DNA of 64,000 bases, from assembly GCA_016291655.1 (NCBI GenBank), contig JAEEYF010000089.1, forward strand, positions 40,197 to 104,196, read 5' to 3'. This document shows positions 9,472 to 50,064 of the stretch, piece by piece. The translations under genes and the position numbers were made by a program. Under the pieces are notes generated by a model. The model was not told where the DNA came from. It ran no database searches and saw nothing but the letters and a program-made list of their open reading frames with translations. Each line of letters starts with the position of its first letter. Positions within the stretch are counted from its first letter, which is position 1. This DNA comes from Lachnospiraceae bacterium (lineage in GTDB: Bacteria; Bacillota; Clostridia; Lachnospirales; Lachnospiraceae).

Positions 9472-9529
9472 GCAAAGGCTTGATTTCAAGGGCTTCCTGT
9501 GTTATAAAGTATGTGTTTAACTGAATATA

Positions 9530-9825
9530 AAGCATGTTCGGTTCCGGAGAGATCCGGATCAGGGGGAAGTTCGGTGAAAATCCGTCGCAACCACCATTAC
9601 CGTGATCGGGCGTGAGCCCGTAAGTCGGAATACCTGCCGAACTTGTAAGGTTAACCGCTTTGACCTTTGTATCATCAAAGTGAGAGTGGACATTTTTGGG
9701 TAAGAAGAATGCAACCGTTTGTCGTTCCGGGACAGTGCCTTAACAGGCAGTGTCTTGGTTTAGTTTGCGTGCGAGAAACAGTTGCGTTTTGTTATCCTTA
9801 AGGAAAACAAAACGCTTTTTCTGTA
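9530..9825 (+). promoter_or_regulatory. Cobalamin (AdoCbl) riboswitch with expression-platform terminator
   Basis: GGTGAAAATCC motif plus a B12 box AAGTCGGAATACCTGCC (consensus rAGYCMGgAgaCCkGCc). A terminator hairpin gcgttttgtt...aacaaaacgc followed by TTTTTCT lies at about 9783-9822. B12-uptake genes follow directly. Confidence 0.75.
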
Positions 9826-17524: not shown

Positions 17525-17690
17525 CCGATTCTTCGTAAAAAAGGCAAACTCTTTCTTCTCACATCCAGACTATACTGTCGGTACCGGAATTACACCGGTT
17601 CATGCACCAAGGCTCGCGGACTTTACCGCCGGTAGGGAAATTTCGTCCCTCCCCGAAGAATCATTATTAAATTACAGGGGGAATTCTACT
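17525..17690 (-). promoter_or_regulatory. FMN riboswitch (RFN element)
   Basis: The minus-strand sequence GGGGAGGGACGAAATTTCCCTACCGGCGGTAAAGTCCGCGAGCC...CCGACAGTATAGTCTGGATGTGAGAAG matches the RFN consensus (GAAATTCCC-ACCGGCGGTA, CCGACAGT-AGTCTGGATG-GAGAAG). Confidence 0.85.
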
Positions 17691-40191: not shown

Positions 40192-40209
40192 TCCGCCTGT
40201 TTGATCGCT

Positions 40210-43752: not shown

Positions 43753-44636
43753 TGGACAGGAAACCTAAGTATCGTTCCCTTGACTCTGAAATGAAAAAGC
43801 GTTTCGGCACCAAGGTATACAAGATATCACTGGATGCGGGCTGTACCTGCCCCAACAGAGACGGAAAGTGCGGCACGGGAGGGTGCATATTCTGTGCCGA
43901 CGAGGCATATGCCTGCTTTGACCTTCCGATAGCGGAGCAGCTGAAGGCCGCGAAGGCCAAGGTTGCGGCCAAGATAAAGGGAGAAGGCAGGTATATAGCC
44001 TACTTTCAGTCCCATACCAACACCTACGGAGATCTGAACCGCCTGGAAAGGCTGTTCACGGAAGCGATTGCAGATCCTGAGGTTGTGGTGCTGTCCATAG
44101 GCACCAGACCGGATTGCATAGACGATAAGGTGATCGCCATGCTGAAGCGTTTGCAAAAGATCAAACCCGTATGGATCGAACTGGGGCTGCAGACAATACA
44201 TGAGAGAACCGCGGAGCTCATCAATCGTGGCTACAGACTCGAAGTGTTTGAGAAAGCATATGCCTGCCTGAAAGCTGCCGGGATAGAAGTCATCGCGCAT
44301 GTGATCATAGGTCTTCCGGGGGAGAGTAAGGAGGATGTGACGGAAACGGTAAGATACCTTGCGGGGCTCAAACCGACGCTGGACGGCATTAAGCTGCAGC
44401 TTCTGCACGTGCTGAAGGGGACTGCGCTTTATGACATGTATATGAAGGATCCGAAGATCATCCATGAATTTGAACTTGAGGAGTATGTGGAGTTTGTGAC
44501 GGGGCTCGTGAAGCTTTTGCCGGAGACTACCGTGGTACACAGGCTGACGGGAGACGGACCGAGGAAACTTCTTGTGACTCCGATGTGGACAACCGACAAG
44601 AAAAGGGTGCTCAATTCATTTCAAAAGTCCTTGTAG
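43749..44636 (+). CDS. Radical SAM protein, TIGR01212 family
   Basis: Cys-rich N-terminal (CTCPNRDGKCGTGGCIFC) and elongator/MiaB-like TIM-barrel motifs. Overlaps the Crp gene by 4 nt. Confidence 0.75.
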   Translation: MMDRKPKYRSLDSEMKKRFGTKVYKISLDAGCTCPNRDGKCGTGGCIFCADEAYACFDLPIAEQLKAAKAKVAAKIKGEGRYIAYFQSHTNTYGDLNRLERLFTEAIADPEVVVLSIGTRPDCIDDKVIAMLKRLQKIKPVWIELGLQTIHERTAELINRGYRLEVFEKAYACLKAAGIEVIAHVIIGLPGESKEDVTETVRYLAGLKPTLDGIKLQLLHVLKGTALYDMYMKDPKIIHEFELEEYVEFVTGLVKLLPETTVVHRLTGDGPRKLLVTPMWTTDKKRVLNSFQKSL

Positions 44637-44728
44637 ACAAGAAAAAAAAGCGGTGATATAATCCAAGCAGATTAGGTGATAAGCCTGTTAACAACAGACT
44701 CTCTTGCCAAATTACGGAGGTAGATATT

Positions 44729-44911
44729 ATGAATAACAGTAAAAGTAATCGCCAAGCCGGGTTCGAAGCGATGGCAAGAGGCAATAAAAAAGCGAATGCC
44801 AATCCTGCAATGAACGGCGGTAAAGGTAATGCTAAGGTGAACAGCGGAGCCGTAAACACCAATGTCAAGGGTGGACAGGCGATGCGTCGTCAGGGACAGC
44901 GCGGTCAATAA
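44729..44911 (+). CDS. Small N/G/K/A-rich protein (60 aa), SASP-like low complexity
   Basis: RBS ACGGAGG before the ATG. A strong terminator follows at 44924-44956. The sequence is MNNSKSNRQAGFEAMARGNKKANANPAMNGGKGNAKVN... Confidence 0.5.
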   Translation: MNNSKSNRQAGFEAMARGNKKANANPAMNGGKGNAKVNSGAVNTNVKGGQAMRRQGQRGQ

Positions 44912-44923
44912 AACGTAAAGTTG

Positions 44924-44956
44924 AGAGGTTCAATCTTCGAACCTCCCTTTTTTTGA
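44924..44956 (+). terminator. Intrinsic terminator
   Basis: gagaggttcaatcttcgaacctc followed by cctttttttt. Confidence 0.8.
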
Positions 44957-44992
44957 TGTACTTTTCGTGATATAATAAGACGATCAACCAAG

Positions 44993-45574
44993 ATGAAGGG
45001 AGACATTATGAACGGGCTTAAAGGTCTTGCATCGTTTATTTCGGAGAAGGACAATATCATCATATTCGTATTCGCCGGCATAAACATCTGCATATTTATT
45101 GCATCGCTCATTATCAGGGCAATCGGAAATTCGATCCGCTATCCGAAGGGAGAACTGATCACGGGAACCGGCGCCAGAGTGCAGGTTTCAAGAAAGACCG
45201 GTAAGGATCTGAGAGGTATAGGACGAACACTTCTCGTACTTTACCAGATATATGCAAATTTAACCGCGGTATTCCCGCTTTTGGGTATCATGGGTACGGT
45301 AGCGGCGCTGATCACCGTGGCGGAATCAAGCGATCTGATGGCTAACCTCATGGTGGCTCTTACCACCACGCTGAACGGCGTTATCTGGGCGATCATCTTC
45401 AAGTGCCTGGATGCGGTGCTCTCGGCACCCCTCGATTCCTTCCTCGGAGTGGTGGATTCGGTTGAGAATCTGCTGGAGGAAGCGGGAAAGGGCGACATAG
45501 AAATAATTGACGATAATGCAAAGGTTGTTTCACCGGTAGCAGGAGAGAAGCATGAAGAAGAGACGAACGCGTGA
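44993..45574 (+). CDS. MotA/TolQ/ExbB-family proton-channel protein (short, 193 aa)
   Basis: Conserved C-terminal TM pair: AVFPLLGIMGTVAALI (compare ExbB APxLGLLGTVxG) and LMVALTTTLNGVIWAIIF (compare ExbB ALiTTAxGLxVAIP). Confidence 0.75.
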   Translation: MKGDIMNGLKGLASFISEKDNIIIFVFAGINICIFIASLIIRAIGNSIRYPKGELITGTGARVQVSRKTGKDLRGIGRTLLVLYQIYANLTAVFPLLGIMGTVAALITVAESSDLMANLMVALTTTLNGVIWAIIFKCLDAVLSAPLDSFLGVVDSVENLLEEAGKGDIEIIDDNAKVVSPVAGEKHEEETNA

Positions 45575-46382
45575 CATTGTCATAGAGCTCACTTCGCTTC
45601 TGGACGTGGTAATGATCCTTATCTTTGCGGTAATGATCGAGAACAGTAAGATGGTGAAGGCTTCCGAAGCTGAGGCGGCAGCGGCCAATGAAGCCGTTCT
45701 GGAAATGCGGAACGAACTCAATGAGACCGTTCTGGAAATGCAGAACGAGCTCAAAGAGACTGAGGAAGAGATGCAGAACAGGCTCGATGAGGCCGAGGCT
45801 GAGAAAAGCCGTATCACCGATGAATTTCTCGGGCAGTTGAAGGACAAGGACAAAGAAATAAAAGAGGCTGAAGAAAAGCTGGGAAAGAGTGATGAAGAGC
45901 TTGCCATCGCAAAGCGTAAGCTTGCGGAGGGCGAGGTCGACGAGCTGCTCAACAGGATAGCGAATGCGGAGCGGAAGCTTGAAGGCTATGAGTACCTGAG
46001 CAAAATGGTCGCGGTGTACAATGTAGGTGTGGAAAGCATATATGCCGTTGACGATCCGGACAACGAATTGTATCGTATCCTTACATTCGGAAAGGCCGGA
46101 ACATCCGATGAGGACAGGCTGTTTGAATTCAGGAACAAGGCGGAAAGATCCGAGGGCATAGGGCATATGAATACCTACCTCACAAGTAAGCTTGACGAGG
46201 TTTTGAAGGATGAGACCGCAGTTGCATTCGTAATATTCACCTACCATACGATAAATTCCAGAGGCTTGGACAGAGTGGCTGTGGAAGAGGCCCTCAACGA
46301 GCTTGTGGATAAATATACCGGAACGGGCTTACGTTATTCGGTAAATATAATAGATGATGAAGATAAAACGGAGGATCGATAA
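45552..46382 (+). CDS. TolR/ExbD-like protein with a long coiled coil and a C-terminal globular domain
   Basis: N-terminus KKRRTRDIVIELTSLLDVVMILIFAVMI matches the ExbD/TolR TM, including the conserved Asp. A roughly 100-aa E/K-rich coiled coil with an internal tandem repeat (ETVLEM(R/Q)NEL). A roughly 140-aa C-terminal domain unlike an OmpA/PG-binding domain. Overlaps the MotA-like gene. Confidence 0.7.
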   Translation: MKKRRTRDIVIELTSLLDVVMILIFAVMIENSKMVKASEAEAAAANEAVLEMRNELNETVLEMQNELKETEEEMQNRLDEAEAEKSRITDEFLGQLKDKDKEIKEAEEKLGKSDEELAIAKRKLAEGEVDELLNRIANAERKLEGYEYLSKMVAVYNVGVESIYAVDDPDNELYRILTFGKAGTSDEDRLFEFRNKAERSEGIGHMNTYLTSKLDEVLKDETAVAFVIFTYHTINSRGLDRVAVEEALNELVDKYTGTGLRYSVNIIDDEDKTEDR

Positions 46383-46901
46383 ATGAAGAAGCTTTTTAAA
46401 TTTTTGTTTTTTGTGACTGTACTTACGGTAGTGTTCCTGTTGGGAACCATCTTCGGCGGTGACAAGTGGGGAATCGGCAAGGGCATCGGTCTTGTGGATG
46501 AAAACGGAGATGTAACAAAGGATTCCGTATCTCAGTTTGTGGATAACACAAAGGAGAATGTTATCGATGGGACCGAAAAGGTGAAGGATACCATTAACGA
46601 CAAGAAGGAAGCAATAAACAACACCATTAACACTCCGGCACCGACACCTCATCCCTACGTATCCGCCAAAGAGATCATGATCACCGCGGGAAAGGACAAT
46701 TACAGCATCTATTCGGAGCCGTGCGATACTCTTGAGGAGCTGGAAAACAAGATCCTTGAGGTTAATGCTGTGAACAAGGATGTAGTTTATGTTGTGGACT
46801 TTACCATCGCGTCCGATAAGACAATGAACAAGCTTAAGGAAGTCATTGAAAGGCAGATAAAGGCTAACGGCATAAAGGTCAGATACACTGAAGAGAAATA
46901 G
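46383..46901 (+). CDS. Membrane-anchored extracytoplasmic protein (N-terminal TM, short Pro-rich TPAPTPHP segment, C-terminal domain); possible TonB/TolA-like partner
   Basis: Start codon abuts the previous stop. N-terminal TM FKFLFFVTVLTVVFLLGTIFGG. Third gene of the stator-like operon; a terminator follows. Confidence 0.55.
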   Translation: MKKLFKFLFFVTVLTVVFLLGTIFGGDKWGIGKGIGLVDENGDVTKDSVSQFVDNTKENVIDGTEKVKDTINDKKEAINNTINTPAPTPHPYVSAKEIMITAGKDNYSIYSEPCDTLEELENKILEVNAVNKDVVYVVDFTIASDKTMNKLKEVIERQIKANGIKVRYTEEK

Positions 46902-46911
46902 ACGGGCATAT

Positions 46912-46940
46912 AAAAAAAGGCGTTTTATACGCCCTTTTTT
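46912..46940. terminator. Bidirectional intrinsic terminator
   Basis: aaaaaaaggcgttttatacgccctttttt. Confidence 0.8.
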
Positions 46941-49576
46941 GATGCCGTTTCAACAGCTTCCCCGAACAGCCTGTCGAGCTCCTGCCTTATGGAGAGCATT
47001 TCGTTGCGGAGCACCTTGCAAACCTTTCTGTCATAGGTGAAAAGACCATTGGTCTCGTCTTCTATGTCGGAAAGCTGGGTATAGATGCACCCGCATCCAC
47101 CCGAGGCGATGATCGGAAAGATCATCTCGTCATACATCTTCCTGACCAGAGCAGTAAGCTCTGCGGGAGAGTGGGATATGCCGTAGTTGAAATGATTGTA
47201 CTTTGAAAAATAATGTTCCGGGATCATATAGGAAAAGCCGCCGCATTCCGAGAGGAGCAGAGGACGTATGCCCGGTGTGAACAAAACGTTGTTGAAGTAT
47301 TGGTGTCGGCTGTCAAAGTCGCTCTTTTTCTGAACGAACCAGCCGGACGTGGAATCATACAGGCGGGTGCCGTCTTTTTCCTTGAGCTTGTCGAATAGGC
47401 TGTCACTGTCAAACTGTCCCCAGCCCTCGTTGAATATGGTGTAAGCCACGACAGAGGGATGGTTATGGAGCTGGCGTAAAGTGCCAAGGCAGTGATTTAT
47501 AAAGAATTCCCTGCGCTTTTTGGAATGACATTTCCCAACATCCGATTTGTGTTTTGTGGTAATGTTGGGCATAATGGTGTCTCTCAGAAAGTTGTATCTT
47601 CCGCTGTTTACCATGTCCTGCATGACAAGTATGCCCAGGGTGTCGCAATAATAATAAAAGATATCCGGCTCGATCTTTATATGCTTTCTCAGGCAGTTAA
47701 AGCCCAGCTCCTTGATCCGCAGGATGTCCTTTGCATATTCGCGGGAGGTGGCGGGGGTGAACAGCCCGTCCGGATAATAGCCCTGATCCAAAACCCCGTG
47801 AAGATAGACGGGTTTGTTGTTCAGGCATACACGGACTATGCCGTTTATCTCTTTAAGGGCTATCGTTCTTAAACCGAAGTAGGTTTCGATCTCATCCGAC
47901 CCATAGCATATGCTCATCCTGTAAAGGTACGGGGAGTCGGGAGTCCAGAGGCGCAGCGGTTCTGTCAGGCCCACACTTGCATATGCGTCCTCGAGATTAA
48001 TGTATTGCCTCTGATCGGAGGATTCCCCGTGCCATATGTGACCACCCGGCAGGTGTATGTCTACGCTGTATTTTTCAATTGATTCGGGCTCGCCTTCCGT
48101 AACGATCTTTAAGTATATGCCTTTAAGATCGGGAGTGATCTTGATTCGACGGATGTGATTCTCGGGAACGGGCTCCAGCCATACCGTCTGCCATATGCCG
48201 CTTACGGGTGTGTACCACATGCCTCCTCTCGGTATGCGTTGTTTGCCGTAGGGATACTTCTTGGAAAGGAAGTCGAAGGCACGCACCTCGATCAGATTGT
48301 CCGCGTACATATTCAGAGCGTCCGTGACATCAAAGGAAAAGGGCAGGTAGCCTCCCTCGTGGGAACCTATGCGTTTATTGTTTATCCAGATCTCGCAGAT
48401 CTGGTCCACGGCTCCGAAATGGAGAATTATGCGCTTTTCACCCCATTCTGCGGGAATACGGAAGGTCCTTGAATAGAACAGAACATTTGTATTGGCACCT
48501 TTATGGCAGGCAAGTGCCGCCTGCGGAGGAAAAGGAACATAGATCGTGTTTGTGTTGAGTTTCCAGACTCCGTTCAGGTTCAGCCAGTCATTACGTCTCA
48601 TCTGAGGACGGGGATATTCCGTCCAGGTCACGGGGGTGTCCGAGGAGTCGACAAATTCTTTCCATATCCTGGGTTCGATCAGGTCTCCGCTTTCCGTGAA
48701 AAGATCAAAATGAGAGGTGCGGATTATCAGATATACCGCCGAAAGAGAAATGAATGCGAGGATGTCTATGACAGCCGCCAAAAGGAAAGTGTTTCTCCCT
48801 GAAAAAACGGGGATCTTAAGCAAAAAATAGGAACAGACCGGAGCAAGAGCAACAGCAAGCGATCTTTCCAGATAGCTGAGAAATTGTTTGTGCTTCGGAG
48901 TATAGTTGTTTAAAAGGGAAGCGATCACGCTTAATGTACAGTACTGCCCGGTAAATATGAAGAAAAGTGAAATGAGGATCGGGATGAACATTGAGGATAC
49001 ACAAAGCAGCAGACAACCTGACATCTGCAAAGCCAAGGCCGGTATGACGGCGGTGGAAAAGCCCTGCGTATCATAGAGTGAGCCGTAAAAAAAGACAACA
49101 TCCAGTGCGAGGAAAAGAGCAATACCGATCAGGATGAGACTTTTGTTATAGGTGATCGTGTCGGAGCAAAAGCCGGGTATACCCAAAAAAGCCACGGAAC
49201 CTGACAGAGAGATCAAAAAAAGGGAGATCGATGTCGTGCCGTTCAGGCCTGAAGAGGATTCTTTGGTAACGGGAGTCTCGGCAAGTTCCTGAAGGCCTCT
49301 GAGGCCTATGACCGAAAAAAGTGTGGCAATAGCGCCTGTTACTAAAAATATCGGCTCTTTGCAAAAAAAAGTATTAGCCGAGAATATGATGAGCATGATA
49401 AAGCTGTATAAAATTTTTGAACCTAAAGAAGGTTTGTTCACGATCGGCCCCCTGAGAAAATGTGTGAGTATTATATCACATAAGTGTTTTTTTGGGTATG
49501 TATTTCTGTTACTCAAACCGTTCTTCTCCATTTCGAATGGGACTTGATGGTTTATTGATACTGTGGTATAATCCAC
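46925..49576 (-). CDS. Membrane-anchored glycoside hydrolase family 2 protein (N-terminal polytopic domain fused to a GH2 sugar-binding and TIM-barrel region)
   Basis: About 300 aa with 8-10 TM helices. Then a GH2 beta-sandwich and TIM barrel (LRIWTPDSPYLYRMSI..., NEGWGQF catalytic acid region). The exact start is uncertain. Confidence 0.7.
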   Translation of the reverse strand: MDYTTVSINHQVPFEMEKNGLSNRNTYPKKHLCDIILTHFLRGPIVNKPSLGSKILYSFIMLIIFSANTFFCKEPIFLVTGAIATLFSVIGLRGLQELAETPVTKESSSGLNGTTSISLFLISLSGSVAFLGIPGFCSDTITYNKSLILIGIALFLALDVVFFYGSLYDTQGFSTAVIPALALQMSGCLLLCVSSMFIPILISLFFIFTGQYCTLSVIASLLNNYTPKHKQFLSYLERSLAVALAPVCSYFLLKIPVFSGRNTFLLAAVIDILAFISLSAVYLIIRTSHFDLFTESGDLIEPRIWKEFVDSSDTPVTWTEYPRPQMRRNDWLNLNGVWKLNTNTIYVPFPPQAALACHKGANTNVLFYSRTFRIPAEWGEKRIILHFGAVDQICEIWINNKRIGSHEGGYLPFSFDVTDALNMYADNLIEVRAFDFLSKKYPYGKQRIPRGGMWYTPVSGIWQTVWLEPVPENHIRRIKITPDLKGIYLKIVTEGEPESIEKYSVDIHLPGGHIWHGESSDQRQYINLEDAYASVGLTEPLRLWTPDSPYLYRMSICYGSDEIETYFGLRTIALKEINGIVRVCLNNKPVYLHGVLDQGYYPDGLFTPATSREYAKDILRIKELGFNCLRKHIKIEPDIFYYYCDTLGILVMQDMVNSGRYNFLRDTIMPNITTKHKSDVGKCHSKKRREFFINHCLGTLRQLHNHPSVVAYTIFNEGWGQFDSDSLFDKLKEKDGTRLYDSTSGWFVQKKSDFDSRHQYFNNVLFTPGIRPLLLSECGGFSYMIPEHYFSKYNHFNYGISHSPAELTALVRKMYDEMIFPIIASGGCGCIYTQLSDIEDETNGLFTYDRKVCKVLRNEMLSIRQELDRLFGEAVETASKKGV

Positions 49577-50064
49577 CTTCGGAAAAAATGATACAGAAAG
49601 TTTTTATGGTTTTTATATTGAGATAAACCGTAAAAGATGGTATACTTTAGCCATCCTGAGGTGTACGACAACTCCTTGCTATTTTGAACCTACAAAACTT
49701 TAAACGGGATTCCTAATTGCGTGACGGATGTCAGGCCGCAACTTCATCGCCGGCCTTCGGATTGGACGAAGATCTTCTTCATTCAATCCGAAGGTCGCCG
49801 CAGCGGAAGACAGCAAATCAGGCTGCGGTTACCCACCTGGCATGATGCTAGGAGTCAAAATGCGGGAAACGGCACTTTGGGTTTTTTGTTACTTTCAAAG
49901 CGATCATTTTTTTGGTCGCATTTTTTTAATGAAACGTTAATGAGTTTTTTACGAGTTATATAGATATGATAACTTTTATTTTAATCATACAGTTTTACAC
50001 TGTCGGTAGGTGAGCGTTGGAATGTTGATTTTCAACGGCCGGCCGATTTTTGGAGGGTAAGTTT

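Follow-up and report, generated by a model that had tools for sequence, protein, structure and literature searches.

Motors of the ExbBD/TolQR type are understood as carrying energy from the inner to the outer membrane, and the solved complexes of these motors and of the flagellar stator (ExbB5D2, TolQ5R2, and MotA5B2) share a 5:2 subunit stoichiometry. In a review of 5:2 motors, ExbBD is regarded as something that belongs to Gram-negative bacteria, and the function of Ton-like orthologs in thick-walled Gram-positive organisms is described as untested (PMC9389320); a 2025 analysis regards the Ton components of monoderms as likely non-functional (PMC12204202). Non-flagellar relatives of ExbBD/TolQR, referred to as 'generic ion transporters', are structurally very diverse, and their function is often unknown (PMC12505986). 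In the 64,000-nucleotide stretch of Lachnospiraceae DNA analyzed here (positions 40,197 to 104,196 of contig JAEEYF010000089.1; the window), three adjacent genes, A, B, and C, constitute a real, conserved, and uncharacterized motor module of the ExbBD/TolQR type, which belongs to a family restricted to Clostridia with a single membrane, a setting in which no task is known for motors of this kind.

Compared with ExbB-ExbD and TolQ-TolR, the module shows the same order of A followed by B with overlapping reading frames, the same three transmembrane (TM) segments with the P..G..GTV and AL..T..G motifs in A, and the same short basic N-terminus in B, ahead of a TM helix that follows the pattern I-x-(L/V/I)-(T/V)-x-(L/F)-(L/I)-D-V and places its Asp in the identical column; C shares the TolR/ExbD fold in its ectodomain. 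The differences lie around this core. The host has a single membrane, and no TonB, TolA, TonB-dependent receptor, or Pal is encoded nearby. The loop between TM1 and TM2 of A, as judged from alignment gaps and hydropathy, is about 35 amino acids (aa) long, compared with about 100 aa in ExbB and TolQ. B has an enlarged ectodomain, unrecognized by ExbD profiles, as well as a helical stalk of 64-167 aa, and the module includes an extra ExbD-fold protein devoid of the TM Asp, sometimes accompanied by a lipoprotein copy.

The family thus keeps the ion-coupling core and replaces everything around it, and it is compact, conserved, and under selection in abundant gut and rumen Clostridia. A literature search returned no published description of the A-B-C family or its architecture, and nothing in the literature on ExbBD/TolQR and 5:2 motors covers the module, in agreement with the original prediction, which had been made from the sequence alone. 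In public annotation, its members appear as 'hypothetical protein' or carry automatic IMG labels (ExbD, MotA, or SbcC). The reading favored here, with a probability of roughly 0.55, is that A-B-C is a functional, uncharacterized ion-driven 5:2 motor of the ExbBD/TolQR branch, adapted to the single-membrane Gram-positive envelope.

Architecture of the A-B-C module

A check of the open reading frames (ORFs) of the window found the three genes exactly where they had been predicted. Together with the flanking expression signals, they are arranged as follows:

44968..44976, + strand: putative extended -10 promoter (TGaTATAAT) of the A-B-C operon, read from the sequence and missed by a two-hexamer scan
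44993..45574, + strand: gene A, minimal subunit of the MotA/ExbB/TolQ family (Pfam, profile, hydropathy, ribosome-binding site)
45552..46382, + strand: gene B, stalked ExbD/TolR-like subunit of 276 aa (relatives, alignment, comparison with Escherichia coli ExbD and TolR)
46383..46901, + strand: gene C, membrane-anchored ExbD/TolR-fold partner of 172 aa (N-terminal TM segment without Asp, GGDxxGIGxGIG, linker, C-terminal domain)
46906..46945, no strand assigned: terminator-like hairpin, bidirectional, located between C and the convergent GH2 gene (-14.9 kcal/mol, z -3.07)

The genes are tightly coupled, as originally described, and followed by a terminator-like hairpin: A shares 23 nt with the reading frame of B, whose stop codon (46380-46382) abuts the ATG of C at 46383, which is preceded by GGAGG 8 nt upstream, and the hairpin downstream of C is flanked by A and T tracts. 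The putative -10 element comes directly after a terminator-like hairpin that belongs to the small ORF located upstream. In 33/33 unique loci, A and B occur side by side, with a C-type gene behind them in essentially every case; the frames are intact throughout, and both gene order and translational coupling are conserved. Such a recurrence of the A-B-C order is far from chance and identifies the three genes as one module.

The product of gene A is a minimal subunit of the ExbB-like kind that has hardly any mass in the cytoplasm. Its ORF comprises 193 aa; the second ATG (45008), preceded by the ribosome-binding site AAGGGAG, is the probable start and yields 188 aa, the same length as in the homologs P0096 and P0102. 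When A, B, and C were scanned against Pfam, NCBIfam, and PADLOC, the sole match above threshold was that of A to Pfam MotA_ExbB (PF01618; 24.0 bits with a cutoff of 22.9, E 3.6e-5, residues 85-145). A profile of the A family (23 sequences), compared with all PDB sequences, matches only MotA, PomA, and ExbB chains, and these within the channel helices only. Both results agree with the predicted membership of the 193-aa protein in the MotA/ExbB/TolQ family. The channel helices carry two motifs:

45272..45301, + strand: TM2 channel motif F-P-L-L-G-I-M-G-T-V, residues 94-103 of the 193-aa ORF (P95, G98, G101, T102, and V103 invariant)
45356..45379, + strand: TM3 motif A-L-T-T-T-L-N-G, residues 122-129 (A122, L123, T126, and G129 invariant)

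The first of these aligns with P..G..GTV of E. coli ExbB/TolQ and with FPAFGMIGTL of MotA, while the second is the counterpart of A-L-x-x-T-x-x-G in ExbB/TolQ and carries the second conserved Thr. A therefore possesses the pore-lining Pro and Thr residues of the MotA/TolQ/ExbB family, the equivalents of ExbB P141, T148, and T181. Their retention among homologs had been proposed as a check of the assignment, and P95, T102, and T126 are indeed invariant in the alignment of 23 sequences, which contains 21 invariant positions. Hydropathy indicates three hydrophobic segments, the same number as in ExbB and TolQ, and TM3 is followed by a short acidic C-terminal tail. No substantial cytoplasmic domain was found between TM1 and the channel helices; because A has almost no such domain, a cytoplasmic output of the complex seems unlikely.

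Gene B combines an ExbD-type TM helix with a long stalk and an extracytoplasmic domain:

45576..45638, + strand: TM helix I-V-I-E-L-T-S-L-L-D18-V-V-M-I-L-I-F-A-V-M-I, essentially invariant across the family (Asp18 codon at 45603-45605)
45639..46007, + strand: helical stalk, charged and amphipathic, at residues ~30-152, which probably forms a dimeric coiled coil (composition, periodicity, AlphaFold2 prediction)
45686..45760, + strand: 33-nt tandem duplication inside the stalk, with the 11-aa units VLEMRNELNET and VLEMQNELKET (Tandem Repeats Finder score 110-113, 88-91% matches)
46008..46379, + strand: extracytoplasmic alpha/beta domain with a short acidic tail (long beta-hairpin, then beta-alpha-beta-alpha-beta)

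The N-terminus of B aligns column for column with E. coli ExbD (I-N-V-T-P-F-I-D25-V) and TolR (I-N-I-V-P-L-L-D23-V), so that its single N-terminal TM helix bears an Asp in the column of ExbD D25 and TolR D23. The segment R7-(D/N)-I-V-I-E-L-T-S-L-L-D18-V-V-M-I-L-I-F is essentially invariant, 17 residues of the TM region do not vary across genera, and the motif was found in all 41 fetched loci; both the ExbD/TolR-like beginning of the 276-aa protein and the conservation of its TM Asp, D18, are thereby established. A database search returned 93 relatives of B, which fall into a long class of 266-321 aa, including the protein of the window, and a much commoner short class of ~205-220 aa; overall identity within the family is 24-55%. 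ExbD was the sole recurrent Pfam family when 30 members were scanned one by one (27/30, best E 3e-5), with all 27 matches below the Pfam threshold. Two metagenome proteins considered as domain swaps (P0092 and P0093) were rejected: their similarity to B is limited to its N-terminal 43-84 residues, beyond which they continue into unrelated sequence (a TRAM domain or a DivIVA-like helix), and they are most likely derived from chimeric contigs.

The stalk of the window protein is 45% charged and free of Pro, and the helices predicted by AlphaFold2 extend to residue 152. Its hydrophobic periodicity is 3.6 residues (z 9.3 against shuffled sequences) rather than the strict 3.5, as would be expected of either an extended amphipathic helix or a coiled coil that includes hendecad-like stretches; the repeat of 11 residues agrees with this. 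The internal repeat noticed originally corresponds to the 33-nt tandem duplication and is a lineage-specific insertion relative to other long-class B proteins. Another part of the prediction, namely a stalk of sufficient length to span a thick wall, fails for the family as a whole, because 58/84 members have stalks of only 60-69 aa (~9.6 nm as a helix); lengths of 100-167 aa (~15-25 nm) occur in the long class only. A stalk that reaches the inner face of the wall would be the more defensible interpretation. The globular domain beyond the stalk is present as predicted, with a size of ~125 aa rather than 140, and is compatible with an enlarged ExbD/TolR-type domain.

In concept, this layout resembles GldL-GldM of the Bacteroidota type IX secretion and gliding system, where a small A-type subunit of little cytoplasmic mass is combined with a long dimeric extracytoplasmic B-type shaft that conveys the output away from the membrane (18 nm in GldM; PMC9389320). 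There is, however, no sequence relationship (Pfam GldL and GldM gave no match at E <= 1), the shaft here is a simple helical stalk instead of four globular domains, and B keeps the ExbD-type Asp helix.

Gene C and its lipoprotein paralog

The third gene carries an ExbD/TolR fold and is not TonB-like. A word-indexed search returned a single near-identical relative of C, and an exhaustive phmmer search of 1.84 billion representatives returned five true ones; P0116 was discarded as a repeat-driven false match. Since database searches yielded so few relatives of this fast-evolving gene, its homologs were gathered from the loci themselves, and an alignment of seven sequences served as the input for structure prediction. 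Two features of the C protein encoded in the window have the following positions:

46632..46658, + strand: Pro-rich motif T-P-A-P-T-P-H-P-Y, residues 84-92 (two alignments)
46668..46892, + strand: ExbD/TolR-type ectodomain, beta-beta-beta-alpha-beta-alpha-beta, residues ~96-170

Four parts are common to all C homologs: an N-terminal TM segment in which no polar residue is conserved, a stretch rich in Gly, a linker that varies, and a domain of ~75 residues at the C-terminus. The TM segment contains no acidic and no invariant residue, hence no counterpart of the conserved TM Asp of B. The Gly-rich stretch, located just outside the membrane, reads GGDxxGIGxGIG in long-class C proteins, in which the motif (T/A)PTPTPHPY is also almost invariant just before the domain; the latter motif is absent from the short class. 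The domain itself is of the ExbD periplasmic type. ExbD is the sole recurrent Pfam family in C (10/26 members, best E 1.6e-4), and the inspected matches lie mostly at positions ~40-116 of the 128-position profile, i.e., within its periplasmic domain. A comparison of the C profile with PDB pointed to the ExbD chains 8pek and 7ajq_F, both below threshold; the TAL-effector rows ranked above them are repeat artifacts without a significant stretch. The suggestion that C is TonB/TolA-like holds for its layout (anchor, linker, and globular domain) and not for the domain, the fold of which is that of ExbD/TolR.

In several clades (loci L003, L018, L019, L021, L023, and L024), a fourth gene, D, encodes a lipoprotein paralog of C with the same domain (lipobox of the form ...L-x-(G/A)-C). 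In the following loci of Acetatifactor, Eisenbergiella, and related organisms, it comes after C and specifies 135-141 aa:

L003:9042-9449: gene D, lipoprotein gene after C
L018:7048-7455: gene D, lipoprotein gene after C
L019:7040-7450: gene D, lipoprotein gene after C
L021:3269-3694: gene D, lipoprotein gene after C

The D motif A-x-K-x-x-(Y/L)-D-E-V aligns with DKTVDYETLMKV of ExbD and AKDVPYDEIIKA of TolR. As a lipoprotein cannot occupy a channel pore, C and D are considered tethered ectodomain partners rather than axle subunits. The presence of one A-type and two ExbD/TolR-like genes per module is reminiscent of AglR-AglQ-AglS from Myxococcus gliding, and the function is in neither case flagellar or Ton-related; AglQ and AglS both keep the TM acidic residue, whereas C and D lack it and have no gliding-machinery context. 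This likeness is drawn from the description of one TolQ-like and two TolR-like subunits in that system (partly PMC12505986).

Distribution, neighborhood, and selection

A scan of one genome per species detected 29 loci, all in Lachnospiraceae, Ruminococcus, Acetatifactor, Eisenbergiella, or other gut and rumen Clostridia. Together with the match of the window DNA to contig JAEEGI010000628.1 (assembly GCA_016295045.1), this distribution agrees with the assignment of the host to the Lachnospiraceae, which are monoderm. The question of what the motor does lends itself to direct testing, as cultured isolates carry the module (Lachnospiraceae bacterium strains 10-1 and P6A3 and Ruminococcaceae bacterium FB2012); besides, A would be a very small subunit for structural work on a minimal motor.

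Conservation of the gene neighborhood had also been suggested as a check, and all-against-all clustering of the neighboring ORFs from the 33 loci revealed no universal partner beyond A, B, and C. Apart from the synteny of close relatives, only a MerR regulator recurs (six loci). The long-class loci share the housekeeping neighborhood of the window across several genomes, comprising 2-hydroxyacid dehydrogenase, DUF6465, MscS, Crp, radical SAM, 60-aa ORF, A-B-C, convergent GH2, VTT, phosphatidylserine synthase, and phosphatidylserine decarboxylase. The neighborhoods of the short class vary. Within +/-10 kb of the module and in related loci, no flagellar, TonB-dependent-receptor, outer-membrane, or recognized defense-effector gene was found, nor a TonB with a TonB_C domain; the predicted absence of a flagellar or Ton-related context is thus borne out. 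No relatives of B were detected in IMG/VR contigs, phage genomes, or plasmids.

Regulatory genes adjoin several short-class modules in a clade-specific manner, none of them universally. A FecR-domain protein is encoded directly upstream in one locus (L001:6322-7479), and a Pkinase+AAA_16 protein of ~1,080 aa lies upstream in two others (L003:3982-7257 and L045:397-3615). The recurrent MerR regulator (109 aa) is located ~1.65 kb from B in L018, L019, L021, L024, L029, and L044, and is often paired with a lipoprotein of the DUF6591/DUF4230 type (L019 and L044) or of the leucine-rich-repeat type.

A and B are under purifying selection: relative to two close relatives, the ratio of nonsynonymous to synonymous substitution rates (dN/dS) is 0.08-0.33 for A and 0.14-0.25 for B. 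Synonymous divergence from L050 differs strongly between the adjacent genes (dS of 0.37 in A, compared with 0.07 in B and 0.04 in C), which suggests recombination within the operon.

Possible mechanism and alternative explanations

By analogy with the solved 5:2 complexes, the most likely assembly would be A5B2. In such a complex, a presumed pentamer of A would form the channel, and a presumed dimer of B would occupy its pore, with the invariant TM Asp carrying the coupling ion. Protonation and deprotonation of this Asp, as ions flow, might drive a relative rotation of A around B. The helical stalk, ~10-25 nm in length, would hold the alpha/beta ectodomain of B off the membrane, at the inner face of the wall, where it perhaps binds peptidoglycan, as TolR, ExbD, and MotB do. 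C contributes an ExbD/TolR-fold ectodomain that is tethered to the membrane through a flexible linker, the reach of which would match the height of the stalk. C and D could hold the position taken by TonB and TolA in diderms, i.e., that of a driven partner or load, or of a wall adaptor, and not of a second axle. The motion would then do mechanical or conformational work on wall-proximal partners; because A lacks a cytoplasmic domain, this work is probably performed in the plane of the membrane or outside it. It is proposed, with more reserve than the motor itself, that the module represents a distinct 5:2 motor of monoderm Clostridia, in which energy of the proton motive force (PMF) is conveyed through the B stalk to the inner face of the wall, with C and D as partners in a process at the level of the wall; in effect, it would be a Ton/Tol system that lacks an outer membrane. 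If this tentative proposal is true, the process would be one without a counterpart among the outputs known for such motors, such as remodeling of the wall, passage of large substrates through it, or the handling of surface polymers.

Several observations weigh against the interpretation of A-B-C as an ion-driven motor of the ExbBD/TolQR branch. A clears the Pfam MotA_ExbB cutoff by a small margin, and B of the window stays below that of ExbD (PF02472; 11.1 vs 25.4 bits, E 0.44) with a match confined to residues 10-49. The B profile retrieved no ExbD chain and nothing else relevant from PDB. The fold of the B ectodomain is matched equally well by generic RNase-H-like folds and by TolR, and a Foldseek search against PDB returned only such folds, with low TM-scores. 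Profile-profile comparison gave no sequence support for homology between this ectodomain and ExbD: none of the hhalign comparisons of C with B, C with ExbD-TolR, and B with ExbD-TolR, either full-length or domain-only, was significant (P 0.002, 0.005, 0.04). The C linker measures ~32 aa where the B stalk is ~64 aa long and 58-86 aa where the stalk comprises 114-167 aa, a correlation treated as weak support because it is a single between-clade contrast that vanishes within each class. For C, dN/dS relative to the two close relatives is 0.47-0.81, with few substitutions. No conserved neighbor in the 33 loci hints at a substrate or an output; finally, stoichiometry, rotation, and binding to the wall are carried over by analogy.

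Among the alternatives, an envelope sensor or signaling device is unlikely but accounts for some features of the loci. Here, the ectodomains of B and C would sense the state of the wall, the A-B complex would respond by gating ion flow or by a conformational change, and lineage-specific regulators would receive the signal. Different regulators do adjoin the module in different clades (FecR, Pkinase+AAA_16, and MerR, in the loci named above), a Ser/Thr kinase and a LytTR protein are encoded upstream in L006, and Zorya provides a precedent for a 5:2 motor acting as a sensor (PMC12505986). Nevertheless, no regulator is universal among the loci; the window locus and its syntenic relatives possess only the Crp-family gene, which lies two genes upstream in a separate unit, and A offers almost no cytoplasmic surface for signaling.

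A closer kinship with Zorya, i.e., an anti-phage module with a PMF-driven sensor anchored in the wall, appears quite improbable. ZorA-ZorB is likewise a non-flagellar pair of the 5:2 type outside Ton/Tol; PADLOC weakly matches B to ZorB over the TM segment and the helix that follows (E 3.9e-4, residues 15-104), and short-class loci occur in variable regions near genes for Fic, GIY-YIG, SNF2-helicase, HTH_3, STAND-like kinase, and TnpV proteins. In Zorya, however, the coiled coil is the cytoplasmic tail of ZorA, whereas here it is extracytoplasmic and belongs to B; A, with only 188 aa, lacks the long cytoplasmic tail that defines ZorA, and neither A nor C has a PADLOC match. Neither a ZorC- nor a ZorD-like effector adjoins the module, effector-like genes are not conserved in its surroundings, and the long class occupies a conserved core-genome location, with housekeeping genes around it in several genomes. 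The absence of relatives from viral contigs, phage genomes, and plasmids points in the same direction.

Very little speaks for a vestigial, non-functional Ton/Tol remnant inherited from a diderm ancestor or acquired by horizontal transfer. Such a remnant would be in line with the published view of Ton systems in monoderms as 'likely non-functional' (PMC12204202) and with the lack of TonB, TonB-dependent receptors, and Pal in the vicinity; it conflicts with the invariance across genera of the 17 TM-region residues of B and the 21 positions of A, with dN/dS values of A and B well below 1, with the intact frames of the 33 loci, and with the preserved gene order and coupling. Moreover, the module has features of its own (the stalk, the C/D paralogs, and the minimal A) rather than those of decayed canonical genes.

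A divergent flagellar stator of the MotAB or MotPS type is hardly credible: the A profile does find its best PDB match in a MotA chain (8gqy, E 1.1e-5), some A homologs are labeled 'chemotaxis protein MotA' in IMG, and the channel helices and the principle of a TM Asp are common to MotA-MotB/PomA-PomB and the module, but A has three TM segments instead of four and no large cytoplasmic torque-generating domain, B lacks the OmpA-like peptidoglycan-binding domain (no OmpA family match at E <= 1 in Pfam scans of B and 30 members), a third ExbD-fold gene belongs to no known stator, and flagellar genes are absent from the surveyed surroundings.

Adjacent genes and RNA elements of the window

Directly upstream of A, a basic ORF of 60 aa, rich in N, G, K, and Q, is located on the + strand (44729-44911). 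It was considered as a fourth component of the module and rejected, since a promoter and a terminator of its own flank it and neither L006 nor the short class contains it. The sigma70-like promoter (44634-44662) shows 11/12 matches plus TG, and the terminator-like hairpin is found at 44925-44945. The ORF has no Pfam or NCBIfam match and is confined to the syntenic long-class loci; its identity amounts to 86-100% in genomes in which that of B reaches only ~43-50%, with a dN of 0 relative to L048.

Downstream, on the - strand, the convergent GH2 glycoside hydrolase gene (46925-49576) encodes a protein whose catalytic domains are preceded by a fused polytopic membrane region of ~300 aa at the N-terminus; NCBIfam matches to beta-galactosidase/beta-glucuronidase start at about residue 333. 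It is a conserved downstream neighbor of the module in six long-class loci. Elsewhere in the window, three structured RNAs were detected:

49650-49887, + strand: 6S/SsrS RNA gene (Rfam RF00013; 57.7 bits vs a gathering score of 46.4)
17549-17664, - strand: flavin mononucleotide (FMN) riboswitch (100.5 bits)
9522-9655, + strand: cobalamin riboswitch (51.4 bits)

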